Part shown: positions 15,082-19,613 of the stretch, piece after piece
How positions within the stretch are numbered: the stretch's first letter is position 1
How the letters are laid out: the number at the start of each line of letters is the position of its first letter
The notes under the pieces: model-generated
What the model was told of the DNA's origin: nothing
The model's database searches: none
The model's input: only the letters and a program-made list of their open reading frames with translations
Virus record (IMG/VR): IMGVR_UViG_3300028887_000006
Length of the DNA stretch: 20,000 nucleotides
Source of the DNA: an uncultured virus (IMG/VR IMGVR_UViG_3300028887_000006)
Lineage: Duplodnaviria; Heunggongvirae; Uroviricota; Caudoviricetes
Strand: one strand, 5' to 3'
Program-made: the position numbers and the translations under genes

Positions 15082-15110
15082 TTGACAAGGAGAGAAGACG
15101 ATGATAATAT
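15082..15110 (+). promoter_or_regulatory. sigma70-type early promoter
   Basis: TTGACA-17 nt-TAATAT. Confidence 0.7.
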
Positions 15111-15165
15111 ATGTTTTGAAAGGATGATTGCGGCGCCAAAAGAGTTTCGGAAAAACCGAAAAGAT

Positions 15166-15204
15166 TACCCAGGAATACCGCAATTGTTTCTGGGTATTTT
15201 TTTT
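15166..15204 (+). terminator. intrinsic terminator/attenuator in the early leader
   Basis: Stem TACCCAGGAATA/TGTTTCTGGGTA, loop CCGCAAT, followed by T8, immediately before the RBS of the gene at 15219. Confidence 0.75.
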
Positions 15205-15218
15205 AAAGGAGAAAAAAG

Positions 15219-15809
15219 ATGGTAAACAAGACCACTAATTATCATTTTCTAACAGTTGGTATAGAACAACCAACAGAAACATCAAGTTACGCAGAAAAAT
15301 TAAAATACTTGGTAAAAATAGTAAATCCTGAATTTCCCAGTTATGATTTTATTTTGAGATTAGCATCATTTGCATCCTGTTCTGAACTATCAGCAACGCA
15401 GAAAGAAAAAGCGGATGAATTTATAAACTATTTCAAACGCTTAGGCTATTTTAATGAAATATTATATACAGAAGATAACGAATCCCACAAAAAAGTTTAT
15501 GATTTTTGCAAAGAAAACAATTTAAAACGTGTAAATATTCAGCAATTTATTGCAAATTTATATATTATTAAATTTAATGATTATGACTGGATATGGGGTT
15601 TTGATCCTGAGGGGCAAGAAGGAATTATTGACTGGAAAAAAGAGATAATTAAATACAACGAAAAACAAATAAAAGAAGGTATTAAATATTTAAAAACGTT
15701 TGGTTTAAAAGAATGGAACAAACCAATATTAAAAGGCGAAAAAGAAAGGTTTAAAGACCGATATATAGGCGATATTATTACTAAAAATGAATATTGTGAA
15801 GAACTGTAA
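15219..15809 (+). CDS. hypothetical early protein
   Basis: 196 aa, RBS AAAGGAG. Confidence 0.7.
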   Translation: MVNKTTNYHFLTVGIEQPTETSSYAEKLKYLVKIVNPEFPSYDFILRLASFASCSELSATQKEKADEFINYFKRLGYFNEILYTEDNESHKKVYDFCKENNLKRVNIQQFIANLYIIKFNDYDWIWGFDPEGQEGIIDWKKEIIKYNEKQIKEGIKYLKTFGLKEWNKPILKGEKERFKDRYIGDIITKNEYCEEL

Positions 15810-16682: not shown

Positions 16683-16952
16683 ATGAAAAGTACAAATCTT
16701 GAATATATGCAAAATGAATTAAAATACGCTTTCAAATGGATGGCTCGTGCCACAGATTTAGCAAAACAAGGAGAATTCTCTGGTGCAACTTACGCTATGA
16801 CAGTAGCTCAGCAACATTGGAATAACTGCCAGCATTGTCAAGACAAATATATAAACGATGACGATGCAAAACAAATACATTGGGATTTCTTCGCAACCAA
16901 AGCTATGGCTATGGCAAAAGAAGAATTAGCTAAAGAAAAAAAAGGAAAATAA
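16683..16952 (+). CDS. hypothetical protein
   Basis: 89 aa; near-identical leader/RBS to the preceding gene. Confidence 0.7.
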   Translation: MKSTNLEYMQNELKYAFKWMARATDLAKQGEFSGATYAMTVAQQHWNNCQHCQDKYINDDDAKQIHWDFFATKAMAMAKEELAKEKKGK

Positions 16953-16953
16953 T

Positions 16954-17475
16954 ATGTCAACATTATATGAAATGGATGAACAAATGAAGGCAATCGAAGC
17001 TATTTTGATTGCCAACGAAGACCCAAACACAGAAGAAATCTTGGAAAATGCAAAGATTGCGCTGGAACAGGACATCGAAAACAAGATGGAATCAATTTTG
17101 AAATACAAGGCCGATTGCGATGCTAAGGTTATAGCTATCAAGTCCGAAATAGAAAGATTGACTAAGAAAATCAAATCTCTGAATAATAAAAGCGACTTTT
17201 TGAAATCTTTGTGTTATTCGCATATGATTACCACAGGTAAGCAGAAAGCAGATTATGGCACATGGACATTATCAATAGCTAAAAAGCCTGCTAGCGTTAA
17301 ATTAACAGACGATGCAAGTGCATTGTTGCCGGATTGTTATTGCACAATTACTCGTACACCGAATAAAACAGCTATTAAAGAAGCTATGACCGATGGTGAA
17401 TTGTTTGTACAGGTTGGTGATAAGAAAATTGTCTTAGCAACACTGGAACAAGGCGATACAATAAGGATTAAGTAA
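16954..17475 (+). CDS. Siphovirus Gp157-family protein
   Basis: MSTLYEM start, long coiled coil (AIKSEIERL..K...NK...LK), TLSIAKKPASV and PNKTAIKEA motifs; next to the annealase. Confidence 0.8.
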   Translation: MSTLYEMDEQMKAIEAILIANEDPNTEEILENAKIALEQDIENKMESILKYKADCDAKVIAIKSEIERLTKKIKSLNNKSDFLKSLCYSHMITTGKQKADYGTWTLSIAKKPASVKLTDDASALLPDCYCTITRTPNKTAIKEAMTDGELFVQVGDKKIVLATLEQGDTIRIK

Positions 17476-17606
17476 TGAATAAGAGAACACACAGAGAAGA
17501 AGTTGTGCGCATCTTACAAGACATCCTTGCTATGCCAAATGCTCGTAGTGCTGCACAACACCAGTTATATATTTACAAAGCATCCTTGTTAACCAAAAGG
17601 AAATAA
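17475..17606 (+). CDS. small hypothetical protein (43 aa)
   Basis: TAATG overlap with the Gp157 stop; fills the gap to 17608 exactly (MNKRTHREEVVRILQDILAMPNARS...). Confidence 0.6.
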   Translation: MNKRTHREEVVRILQDILAMPNARSAAQHQLYIYKASLLTKRK

Positions 17607-17607
17607 T

Positions 17608-18219
17608 ATGGAAAAAACAAAAATAAATACAATTAACATTAAAGGGAAAGAATATGCAACCGTAGATTCTCGTGTTCAATTCTTCCGTGAAAAATATACA
17701 AATTGGTCTATTGAAACAGATTTTGTTGTACTTGATTTAGATAAAGGTGTTTGTGTATGTCGTGCTGTTGTAAAAGATGAAAACGGTAAAATTATGTCTG
17801 ATGGTTATGCTCATGAATGGCAAAGCAAACCAGGTTCTATGGTTAACAAAACATCTTACATAGAAAACGCACAAACTTCTGCTGTTGGTCGTGCGCTGGG
17901 ATTTATTGGTATTGGTATCAATGGTATTGGGATAGCAAGTGCAGAAGAAGTGTCAATAGCTATCGAACACCAACAAAATAATGACTTTCAAGTAACTGAC
18001 CAAACAATTAACGATGTTGTTGGAGATGAAATACCAGAAAAACGTTCACTGGTTAATGGTGTATCAAAAGAATGTCAAGAAGCTATTAACGATGCAGATA
18101 CTATGGTGGCATTACGTGCTGTCTATGATAAATATGCAACACTTGAACCGCTGCAAGATTTGAAAGATGCATGTGCAGCAAAAAAAGAATTGTTGCAAGT
18201 AATGCTGACTATGGGCTAA
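17608..18219 (+). CDS. Rad52/Sak-like single-strand annealing protein
   Basis: IKGKEYATVDSRV...G.AHE...VNKTSYIENAQTSAVGRALGFIGIG signature. Confidence 0.75.
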   Translation: MEKTKINTINIKGKEYATVDSRVQFFREKYTNWSIETDFVVLDLDKGVCVCRAVVKDENGKIMSDGYAHEWQSKPGSMVNKTSYIENAQTSAVGRALGFIGIGINGIGIASAEEVSIAIEHQQNNDFQVTDQTINDVVGDEIPEKRSLVNGVSKECQEAINDADTMVALRAVYDKYATLEPLQDLKDACAAKKELLQVMLTMG

Positions 18220-18321
18220 GATTCTAACGGTGGCTGTGGATTTATTTCATTGATTTTCCTTTCTCTCGACATCCCCACAGCCATACACAAGTGAGTGCGG
18301 CACTTCCGTTAGAATCCGCAC
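18220..18321 (+). ncRNA. candidate structured RNA (three-way junction with anti-RBS loop and pseudoknot)
   Basis: Perfect pairings 18220-18230/18306-18316, 18231-18239/18275-18283 and 18289-18293/18301-18305; loop GTGCGG complementary to CCGCAC 18316-18321. Confidence 0.55.
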
Positions 18322-18342
18322 ACTAACACAAAAGGACACGCT

Positions 18343-18567
18343 ATGAACAAAGATTTATTATTATCACTTGTACAAAGAATTGAAAAGTTAAACTCTGATG
18401 CAGAAGCTATTGCTGCTGATATCAAAGAAATCTATCACGAAGCAAAGATGCAAGGGTTTGATGCAAAGGCTATCAAAAAATGTATTGCTTTGCGTAAAAA
18501 AGATAAAGATGAACTTGAAGAAGAAGACGAAGTTTTGAAACTTTATCGTTCTGCTTTAGGTTTATAA
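18343..18567 (+). CDS. gapR: GapR / DUF2312 nucleoid-associated DNA-binding protein
   Basis: L.S.VQRIEKL...IAADIKEIYHEAK..GFDAKAIKK.I.LRKKD..E..EE..VL.LY..ALG matches the DUF2312 consensus. Confidence 0.9.
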   Translation: MNKDLLLSLVQRIEKLNSDAEAIAADIKEIYHEAKMQGFDAKAIKKCIALRKKDKDELEEEDEVLKLYRSALGL

Positions 18568-18571
18568 TCAG

Positions 18572-18626
18572 TTTGGGGTGGTCTGCTTCATGATAAATCT
18601 CTTCTCTCTTTCTTCCCCACCCCAAA
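18572..18626 (+). ncRNA. candidate hairpin sRNA with anti-RBS/anti-AUG loop
   Basis: Perfect 10-bp stem TTTGGGGTGG/CCACCCCAAA around a 35-nt pyrimidine-rich loop. Confidence 0.5.
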
Positions 18627-18640
18627 AGAGAGATATATTT

Positions 18641-18726
18641 GGGTAGGTAGCGAAGCGGTCAAACGCATCAGACTGTAAATCTGACACCTTCGGGTTTCGA
18701 TGGTTCGAATCCATCCCTGCCCACCA
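18641..18726 (+). tRNA. tRNA-Tyr (GTA)
   Basis: Acceptor GGGTAGG/CCTGCCC, anticodon arm TCAGA-CTGTAAA-TCTGA, long variable arm, T arm GATGG-TTCGAAT-CCATC, encoded ACCA end. Confidence 0.95.
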
Positions 18727-18744
18727 AGAATAAAGGAGTTGAGC

Positions 18745-18807
18745 ATGATTTGGGTGTTAATAGGAATTTTAATTTTTACTTGGTTTGTAATAAAGGATGA
18801 ACAATGA
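18745..18807 (+). CDS. 20-aa hydrophobic micro-protein
   Basis: RBS AAAGGAG; MIWVLIGILIFTWFVIKDEQ; ATGA overlap with the next ORF. Confidence 0.5.
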   Translation: MIWVLIGILIFTWFVIKDEQ

Positions 18808-18968
18808 AGAAACACTTAATAGTTAGAATACTCTTGTGTATAGCAAGTTTTGCTTGCGGTATATATTGGGAACGCAGTGCAAGTTGGCACGACCAAGAAG
18901 AATGGATGCAGTATGCACAAGAAGCGTGCGACCTGCGGATTAAAACACTGAAAGCAACTTGTAAATAA
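18804..18968 (+). CDS. small membrane-anchored/secreted protein (54 aa)
   Basis: RBS AAAGGA; MKKHLIVRILLCIASFACGIYW... has a basic N-terminus and a hydrophobic helix. Confidence 0.6.
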   Translation: MKKHLIVRILLCIASFACGIYWERSASWHDQEEWMQYAQEACDLRIKTLKATCK

Positions 18969-18978
18969 GGAGAGCAAA

Positions 18979-19566
18979 ATGAAAAAGAAAGAAATTACAT
19001 TACAAGACATTTTTGATAAAATGGAAGAATTAAACTCTAACTTTACAAACCGCATAAATCATTTGTCGGATTGCGTAAGGTCGTTCTGTGAAATTGATAA
19101 TACCGAAGTCAAATCGGTTGAAAGTCACGACGGTGTTATAATAACAGACAAAGATTATATCACAATCACTGCTGACGATGTATATGTTGGCGGTGCGCCA
19201 GCAAGAGAATATCACGGTCAAGAGATTTATAGTCGATATTTTTGCCCTGCTTATTTCAAAGAAGCCAGAGATACGATTCGAGAAGAATATGGTTATGAGT
19301 TGCTTGAAATACATTGTTTACAATCTTCAACAGATGGCGAATATGCAAAATCTGGGAACCCAGTGCCAGACGAAAAAGGTAAATATTGCTGGGTAAGAGT
19401 GAAATATAAAGATAAATATGGAGCGCCTGCGGCTTCGCTTTGGGTGTTCGGCCTCACGTACAGTTCGGCTTCCGATTGCGCGAGCGGCTGTGCGAACAAC
19501 TGCGGTGGCAGCGTCCGTTACAACTCCGATATGCGTTCGGGCTTGTTCGGGTCTGTGCGTAATTGA
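18979..19566 (+). CDS. hypothetical protein with a C-terminal putative DGR variable region
   Basis: 195 aa, RBS AAGGAG; C-terminus YCW...SLWVF...Y.SASDCASGCANNCG.SVRYNSDMRSGLFGSV encoded by a GC-rich, NNC-rich block. Confidence 0.75.
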   Translation: MKKKEITLQDIFDKMEELNSNFTNRINHLSDCVRSFCEIDNTEVKSVESHDGVIITDKDYITITADDVYVGGAPAREYHGQEIYSRYFCPAYFKEARDTIREEYGYELLEIHCLQSSTDGEYAKSGNPVPDEKGKYCWVRVKYKDKYGAPAASLWVFGLTYSSASDCASGCANNCGGSVRYNSDMRSGLFGSVRN

Positions 19567-19613
19567 TGTGCCGGAATGCGAAGGTGGGGTTTGGGGCGGA
19601 ACATCTGCCCCAA
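19423..19613 (+). other. putative DGR variable repeat plus 3' hairpin
   Basis: 47 consecutive codons with no third-position A; about 62% GC over 19421-19560 (hand count); hairpin TTGGGGCGGA-ACA-TCTGCCCCAA at 19591-19613. Confidence 0.65.

Follow-up and report, generated by a model that had tools for sequence, protein, structure and literature searches.

Two GC-rich hairpins with 35-nt loops flank a variably present gapR gene in a rumen phage and may be accessory structures of its early mRNA

Results

Two hairpins of shared architecture bracket gapR

We analysed a 20,000-nucleotide (nt) stretch of an uncultured Caudoviricetes virus (IMG/VR record IMGVR_UViG_3300028887_000006; hereafter the window), in which two hairpins, H1 and H2, lie on either side of gapR, a gene predicted to encode a GapR-like DNA-binding protein of 74 amino acids (aa) (18343-18567, + strand; PF10073, E 2.1e-25). 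The hairpins are real and non-random. They are not independent small RNA (sRNA) genes, and no targets for them are detectable in the phage. We tentatively read both as accessory cis-acting structures of the early rightward polycistronic mRNA, with H1 serving as the leader of a gapR cassette and H2 as a 3' hairpin after tRNA excision, and assign this reading a probability of about 0.35. The argument for accessory cis-acting RNA structures around a gapR insertion combines the position of both hairpins in one transcription unit, their abutment on stop codons, the tRNA processing site that follows one of them, and their presence or absence between near-identical genomes.

H1 (18231-18283, + strand) consists of 9 perfect pairs, with arms TGGCTGTGG (18231-18239) and CCACAGCCA (18275-18283), closing a loop of 35 nt (18240-18274); as RNA, the stem gains a G-U pair between 18230 and 18284. 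H2 (18572-18626, + strand) has 10 perfect pairs formed by TTTGGGGTGG (18572-18581) and CCACCCCAAA (18617-18626), and its loop (18582-18616) is again 35 nt long. TTCAT occupies loop positions 7-11 in H1 and 6-10 in H2 and is followed in both by a C/T-rich tract, the loops being 77% (H1) and 80% (H2) C+T with only 2 G per 35 nt and 9 and 11 C, respectively. Both stems are closed by GTGG...CCAC, both loops end in TCC, and the stems are GC-rich within a genome of 38% G+C. Aligned with MAFFT, the two hairpins are ~53% alike; they stand 288 nt apart with gapR between them. A preliminary description of the locus had reported the perfect 9-bp and 10-bp stems on either side of gapR, the equal loops, the nearly equal placement of TTCAT before a CU-rich tract, the reverse complements of the loops and the 14-nt distance from H2 to a tRNA, all of which agree with the sequence.

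To judge how often such a pair would arise by chance, we searched the complete 35,475-bp genome for perfect stems of at least 9 bp that include 6 or more G/C and close a loop of 20-60 nt. H1 and H2 are the sole examples. In 300 first-order Markov genomes the mean number of such hairpins was 0.123; two or more occurred in 0.7%, and two within 500 nt in none (0/300).

H1 has a predicted folding energy of -17.3 kcal/mol (z -3.10; 2/200 shuffles equal or better) and forms the central arm of a three-way fold of 98 nt (-32.0 kcal/mol, z -2.90, 1/200 shuffles as good). In this extended element (18220-18316, + strand), an outer stem of 11 perfect pairs between GATTCTAACGG (18220-18230) and CCGTTAGAATC (18306-18316), which are 100% complementary, encloses H1 together with a second, small arm, AAGTG(AGTGCGG)CACTT. 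The outer stem starts 0 nt after the TAA stop of the upstream 203-aa gene. An alternative hairpin, GTGCGG(15 nt)CCGCAC (18295-18322, + strand), competes with the 3' arm of the outer stem and is predicted when 18205-18232 is blocked, as it would be under a terminating ribosome (-21.5 kcal/mol). The gapR translation-start region that follows (18330-18347, + strand; AAAAGGA, a 6-nt spacer and ATGAA) is predicted to be mostly unpaired (0.84 for its Shine-Dalgarno (SD) sequence). For the C/U tract of the H1 loop the value is 0.85.

H2 begins 4 nt past the TAA stop of gapR and ends 14 nt ahead of tRNA-Tyr. Its loop has an alternative partner in the 3' flank: TCTCTCTTT (18603-18611) can pair with AAAGAGAGA (18625-18633) in a hairpin of 9 bp with a 13-nt loop (18603-18633, + strand), which excludes the H2 stem and has a minimum free energy of -10.0 kcal/mol when the H2 5' arm is blocked to mimic a terminating ribosome. 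The pairing of the H2 loop with its 3' flank, raised in the preliminary description, thus exists as a real alternative hairpin; its match score falls below that of chance-level matches, and we rejected it as a signal.

The H1 loop mirrors the start signature of the phage

Nearly every gene start in this phage has an A-rich tract, AAAGGA, 6-7 nt and ATG. The H1 loop contains UUCAU (18246-18250) and UCCUUU (18257-18262), which together form the reverse complement of AAAGGA-N6-ATGAA. The pattern AAGGA-N5-8-ATG occurs 38 times on the two strands of the genome, and 36 of these occurrences open a reading frame (ORF) of at least 53 aa: 26 coincide with starts in a crude gene list, and the other 10, opening ORFs of 53-669 aa, are alternative starts, one duplicated start in an overlap, or small rightward ORFs absent from that list. 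The remaining two open shorter frames: one is a 12-aa ORF, and the other lies on the minus strand of the H1 loop, with the sequence AAAGGA-AAATCA-ATG-AAA-TAA (MK-stop). As 36 of the 38 occurrences open ORFs of real length, we consider the H1 loop a genuine start-site mirror. Outside genes, the signature has a frequency of roughly a few per 100,000 positions. The resemblance to start sites that had been proposed for both loops is exact for H1; H2 is only loosely similar and has no AAGGA core.

We also noted a perfect AAAGGAG-N7-ATG near position 22103 of virus record G001 (unit position 31561), at the end of the rightward gene block, that opens a 12-aa ORF rich in lysine and glycine (MPCGKKRKGGKK). 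This ORF is either a micro-protein or a further orphan start site.

When the loops were paired with 47 start regions of the phage using RNAduplex, the H1 loop reached a mean of -10.88 kcal/mol against -9.36 +/- 0.77 kcal/mol for shuffled loops, with 2/100 shuffles as good. Its best single partner was unremarkable (25/100 shuffles as good), and the H2 loop showed no enrichment against the same regions (71/100). As a partner, the gapR start region ranks 36/47 for H1 and 44/47 for H2. An ungapped complementarity scan with shuffled-loop controls gave best non-self scores over both strands of the complete phage genome of 27 (H1) and 31 (H2), compared with 30.9 +/- 3.0 and 30.5 +/- 3.0 for 200 shuffled loops. 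The specific phage mRNA targets proposed earlier hence do not stand out from shuffled loops.

Two local pairings were tried and rejected. The H1 loop is complementary to the gapR start at 13/17 positions in register, yet this start ranks 36/47 and complementarity nearby is at chance. The H2 loop matches gapR codons at 18425-18444 in 17/20 positions, but 89/1000 shuffles equal it.

Neither hairpin has the signals of a separate gene

The rightward block of genes begins at 15219, and from there on all neighbours lie on the + strand and share a common start signal. Sigma-70-like sites on the + strand were found at 15082, 15750, 16408, 17158, 17200, 17434, 18333 and 18994, none of them placed as an upstream promoter of H1 or H2, and no terminator-like site was found downstream of either hairpin. 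The sole candidate processing site is the 5' end of the tRNA, 14 nt past H2. This does not fit the guide-RNA system that the preliminary description had put forward. Of its wider sRNA interpretation, the H1 start mirror and the mean pairing of H1 with start regions survive; the system of guide RNAs, the phage targets, the anti-start property of H2 and the common scaffold are not supported.

Known RNA and mobile elements were considered in turn. An Rfam cmscan, run with E up to 1 on the whole window and with E up to 10 on 18200-18645, returned only the tRNA and irrelevant weak matches inside gapR. Intrinsic terminators were rejected on account of the 35-nt loops and the absence of a T-run after either stem, and a tRNA or tRNA-like gene because ARAGORN and the Rfam tRNA model detect only tRNA-Tyr at 18641-18726. 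A miniature inverted-repeat transposable element or a repetitive extragenic palindrome (REP)-like mobile palindrome was set aside as there are two copies only, with none elsewhere in the genome, in the related records G002 and G003, or in 80 gapR loci of other phages. In the comparison with tRNA, the resemblance between GTTAGAATCC and GTTCGAATCC is a 10-nt near-match, one of many of that size. In IMG/VR, the H1 outer inverted repeat with a 60-90-nt gap had 0 matches, and a search with a 43-nt stretch of tRNA-Tyr likewise had 0. A degenerate tRNA, an integron attC site, IS200/IS605 ends, an invertible switch, ribosomal bypass, a type III antitoxin and a CRISPR-repeat mimic were also weighed and dismissed because the defining partner genes or motifs are absent. 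Literature listings on phage GapR and on phage anti-SD hairpin sRNAs contained no account of such elements.

gapR, H1 and H2 are gained and lost among relatives

Close relatives are numerous in rumen metagenomes, as judged from 5777 homologues of the 203-aa gene. We aligned contigs of four runs to 16900-19600 of the window, and the differences given here are the best-supported ones. Contig X5 (1,460 nt, ~91% identical) keeps H1 and gapR and has an identical tRNA-Tyr; 18568-18639, comprising H2 and the spacer, is replaced by 8 other letters. Contig X9 (5,256 nt, ~91% identical) keeps H1 with T>C at 18241, one base lost at 18244, one gained after 18254 and three lost at 18266, and has 18579-18744 swapped for 96 other letters. 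The base gained after 18254, in the H1 loop, is a C; a T is added after 18337 in the gapR start, where insertions at 18332 and 18333 also disturb the SD sequence. X5 also lacks loop base 18244, and the exact 35-nt loop length is not preserved in relatives. The alignment of a further contig, X10, begins only at the gapR ATG, the region upstream being different.

More distant relatives have neither gapR nor either hairpin. G002 (a complete record of 37.6 kb) and G003, both with 203-aa proteins that are 57-74% identical to the one here, carry tRNA-Met and tRNA-Trp, respectively, in the same slot directly behind the upstream gene (L047 3652-3729; L048 3655-3790). Single-protein scans of public collections for close relatives found none, and alignment scans yielded nothing beyond G002, G003, a fragment of 1.3 kb and one unrelated weak genome match; the first three have neither gapR nor the hairpins.

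Many GapR homologues that are 85-96% identical (P0123-P0146 and others) are 97-103 aa long and have a conserved N-terminal extension, MSDWYDESF..LTPNN.KTGVEH, which corresponds to 18265-18342 of the window. In GapR proteins 96% identical to the one here, a conserved extension of 26 aa replaces the H1 interval. Two further kinds of extension occur in other relatives, MYKYNKYQWYSQEL... or the 5-aa MENTT. Because these extensions differ, the interval upstream of the gapR ATG must be hypervariable among close relatives. Contigs and extensions together indicate that gapR is a shuffled module, that H1 is one of several alternative upstream neighbours and that H2 is dispensable.

Beyond close relatives, we examined 80 of 547 phage gapR loci, at identities of at most 58%, and found no comparable hairpins; three related genomes likewise contained no second copy or look-alike. 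Exact-stem patterns with 25-45-nt gaps matched 26 (H1) and 17 (H2) loci in IMG/VR, which have unrelated loops and share no protein or DNA with the window; by a rough estimate these numbers are about chance level. Database look-up of the spurious ORFs that relatives would read across the hairpins was empty for 6/6 exact queries. The proposal of a common scaffold with swappable loops finds no footing here, as the exact-stem matches are unrelated and the H1 loop of relatives shows a base change and small indels instead of a swap.

Two unrelated IMG/VR phage contigs, L124 (1808-1861) and L113 (534-587), have a 10-12-bp GC-rich stem ~90 nt downstream of gapR with a 30-nt loop. On the sense strand, this loop presents the SD sequence GAGGGGGG and the ATG of the next ORF, in the orientation opposite to that of H1 and H2.

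Accessory structures of the early mRNA as the preferred reading

Under our preferred reading, gapR would be an acquired, variably present gene bracketed by H1 and H2, and the hairpins would have come with the gapR insertion or arisen around it. The 98-nt H1 fold, travelling with gapR, would most likely be a structured leader or insulator that sets gapR translation or the cutting or stabilisation of the message. Possibly the H1 loop also touches the gapR start weakly and damps gapR translation; such contact is conceivable because the loop mirrors the SD-N6-AUGAA signal that gapR uses. H2 would have been inserted later into the short gap that separates gapR from the tRNA, and would be dispensable. 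RNase P is described in PMC11143913 as processing phage operon RNAs, for example the C4 antisense RNA precursor, and a cut at the tRNA 5' end would here leave H2 as the 3'-terminal hairpin of the gapR message. If the hairpins merely shape the mRNA, they are an ordinary case of accessory genes entering phage operons with RNA structures of their own.

The reading builds on anatomy, statistics, operon position, absent gene signals and presence or absence in relatives, each established directly, and several points weigh against it. Single-unit transcription, processing and the effects on stability or translation are all steps that we infer. The H1 loop is predicted to pair with the gapR start at -9.0 kcal/mol, a poor partner at rank 36/47, and same-strand complementarity within 600 nt is at chance level for both loops (149/1000 shuffles as good for H1, 89/1000 for H2). 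The H2 fold of -15.2 kcal/mol is unexceptional (z -0.56; 56/200 shuffles as good), and a protective or processing hairpin needs no 35-nt loop. The precise H1 start mirror and the common 35-nt architecture are therefore only half explained. Finally, the aligned contigs hold 336 further differences beyond the best-supported ones described above.

Other explanations

One alternative is that the hairpins are neutral or selfish palindromic insertions, functionless indels produced by template switching or by a minor mobile palindrome family in spacers just past stop codons. H2 is indeed an indel between ~91% identical genomes, the region upstream of gapR is replaced in other relatives, GC-rich stems in a 38% GC genome fit a foreign or non-templated origin, and neither a target nor a promoter, terminator or RNA family was found. 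We nevertheless find this explanation doubtful: there are two copies only, ~53% alike, with none more in the genome, the 2 relatives, the 80 gapR loci or IMG/VR; independent events are not expected to share stem length, a 35-nt loop, the placement of TTCAT and GTGG/CCAC; and the H1 start mirror is otherwise almost confined to real gene starts. It is unlikely, in our judgement, that the loops are trans-acting anti-SD and anti-AUG decoys or guides, freed from the early transcript (H2 by RNase P) and blocking host or phage mRNAs. This would make sense of the way the H1 loop mirrors, as a reverse complement, the AAAGGA-N6-ATGAA signature at the phage's own starts, of its mean pairing with 47 start regions (better than 98/100 shuffles) and of the RNase P site 14 nt from H2, and phages P1 and P7 have operon-embedded, RNase P-processed antisense RNAs according to PMC11143913. 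However, no above-chance target exists in the complete phage genome or nearby in cis, the H2 loop is unenriched against start regions (71/100 shuffles as good), promoter and terminator signals are absent, a close relative does without H2, the elements occur only in a narrow lineage, and a generic decoy would need great abundance to matter. We hold it equally improbable that H1, and H2 more loosely, represents a new kind of phage riboregulator, that is, a stem-closed 35-nt loop with anti-SD, spacer and anti-AUG segments that sits within an early mRNA, is freed by tRNA processing, damps AAAGGA-N6-AUGAA starts on phage or host mRNAs including gapR, and is gained and lost with accessory genes. If the H1 loop did act in this anti-start manner, it would amount to a compact, portable brake on translation, pairing with the Shine-Dalgarno sequence as well as with the start codon.

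Proteins might also bind the loops. The G-poor C/U loops (2 G per 35 nt; 9 C in H1 and 11 C in H2) could load Rho, imposing polarity on gapR and downstream genes, or act as S1/30S standby sites that enhance downstream initiation; structure prediction leaves them unpaired (0.85 for the H1 C/U tract), and they lie in untranslated gaps directly past stop codons. For a primary binding site of Rho, a 35-nt loop is short, the data tie neither factor to these sequences, and the closing stems and the anti-AUG block would go unexplained, which leaves this idea quite unlikely. Minus-strand translation starts are a very unlikely explanation, in which ribosome-binding sites (RBSs) of an antisense transcript, both exposed in a loop, would initiate tiny ORFs, namely MK-stop in H1 and MKQTTPN-stop in H2. 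The H1 minus strand does have a perfect AAAGGA-N6-ATG, a type of signature that opens ORFs of at least 53 aa in 36/38 cases, and the two-codon bar minigenes of phage lambda offer a parallel. These ORFs, however, span just 2 and 7 codons, the H2 SD-like tract has no AAGGA core, the region is part of a rightward operon in which nearby minus-strand promoter matches are at chance level (9/12, with the site total equal to the shuffle expectation), and exact look-ups found no protein database entry for these frames (6/6 empty). Sites acting as DNA are a similarly remote prospect, whether as inverted repeats 35 bp apart bound by a protein or as attC-like or IS200/IS605-end-like recombination sites bounding a gapR cassette. 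The hairpins are in direct orientation, with the variably present gapR between them, their half-sites are alike (TnGnnGTGG), and TCTAAC/GTTAGA in the H1 outer stem is close to the attC core consensus. Against such sites, no integrase, transposase or recombinase is found among the 57 proteins scanned, H1 and H2 are gained or lost independently (X5 has H1 and gapR without H2), and neither a target-site duplication nor further copies are seen.

Comparison with known systems

In working principle, the closest known systems are the C4 antisense RNA of phages P1 and P7 and the cuckoo/CcsR RNAs, whereas the PeSL cassettes of T4-type phages come nearest in how they behave in genomes. The features tested place H1 and H2 outside all of these families, with the exception of the flanking of variable genes that is typical of PeSL cassettes.

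The loops of C4 pair with a ribosome-binding region and have defined complementary targets in the same transcript, and C4 is conserved and essential for immunity. H1 and H2 give no covariance-model match even at E up to 10, their cis complementarity is that of chance, H2 is dispensable and both elements are lineage-specific. Like C4 they are phage-encoded, and they would share with it a place within an operon transcript and release by RNase P (PMC11143913).

The cuckoo/CcsR RNAs (RSs0680, alpha-r14; RF02344) of Alphaproteobacteria are hairpins with variable stems and a pyrimidine-rich, anti-Shine-Dalgarno-like loop motif; according to PMC4615179 they come in groups of 2-4 adjacent hairpins, each 24-50 nt long, and every loop, 9-27 nt in size, contains CCUCCUCCC. 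They resemble H1 and H2 in their anti-SD-like pyrimidine loops on variable stems and belong to the phylum in which GapR is typical. By comparison, H1 and H2 are longer hairpins (53 and 55 nt) with 35-nt loops, stand 288 nt apart with a gene between them, and have an anti-AUG block in addition. Neither loop contains CCTCC/CCUCC, and neither has an Rfam match. The Staphylococcus aureus RNAIII-type regulators with C-rich loops (UCCC loops; PMC4615179) are similar in that loop pyrimidine motifs are proposed to seed RBS pairing. Such regulators have been shown by experiment to be discrete sRNAs, and their loops are short and their targets known, whereas H1 and H2 are known from sequence.

PeSL cassettes combine a strong sigma-70 early promoter with a terminator stem-loop and have conserved, recombining repeats (PMC2839356). 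Like those stem-loops, H1 and H2 flank a small, non-essential, variably present gene and mark indel borders between close relatives: G002 and G003 have no gapR, X5 has lost H2 or never had it, and X10 differs upstream of gapR. Unlike PeSL elements, H1 and H2 have no promoter, terminator or T-run, are only ~53% alike and are gained and lost separately.

Phage genome and gene neighbourhood

The window and virus record G001 overlap without mismatch across 10,542 bases, and the first 9,458 bases of the window equal the tail of G001 (9,458/9,458, 100%), giving a closed phage genome unit of 35,475 bp with a G+C content of 38%. Since the head of the window is identical to the tail of G001, the genome is terminally redundant or circularly permuted, and the 49% completeness listed for G001 is probably too low. 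We also observed that G001 has an end overlap of its own, of 253 bases with 1 mismatch. The runs in which the stretch occurs carry labels of gut metagenomes from ruminants and other animals, and the virus is a 35.5-kb, podovirus-like rumen phage. No RNA run is among those listed for the stretch, and one run first taken for RNA is probably DNA.

Structural genes (tail proteins, the major head protein and a T7-type portal) occupy the leftward strand. In the rightward block, a Gp157/Gam-like gene (16954-17475, + strand) precedes the 203-aa gene (17608-18219, + strand; TAA stop at 18217-18219), whose 5777 homologues form a very large uncharacterised family. Downstream of gapR are tRNA-Tyr (GTA) (18641-18726, + strand; ARAGORN, Rfam tRNA model 62.9 bits) and a gene for a 20-aa hydrophobic peptide, MIWVLIGILIFTWFVIKDEQ (18745-18807, + strand), with a homologue behind the tRNA slot in G003. 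Further small genes also follow tRNA-Tyr in this block.

The slot behind the recombination genes holds tRNA-Tyr here, tRNA-Met in G002, tRNA-Trp in G003 and 96 unrelated letters in X9. Judged from these sequences, the slot at 18641-18807 looks like a tRNA exchange hotspot.

At the start of the rightward block, 15082-15221 contains a strong sigma-70-like promoter (TTGACA, 17 nt, TAATAT, with TG) followed by two hairpins, the second of which (15166-15196) carries a run of 8 T. Promoter and hairpins lie directly upstream of the first rightward gene (ATG at 15219). The freshwater-2 cis-regulatory motif of Rfam matches here weakly, at 29.2 bits (gathering score 49.9; E 0.59), and the interval may act as an attenuator close to the promoter or give rise to a short leader RNA.

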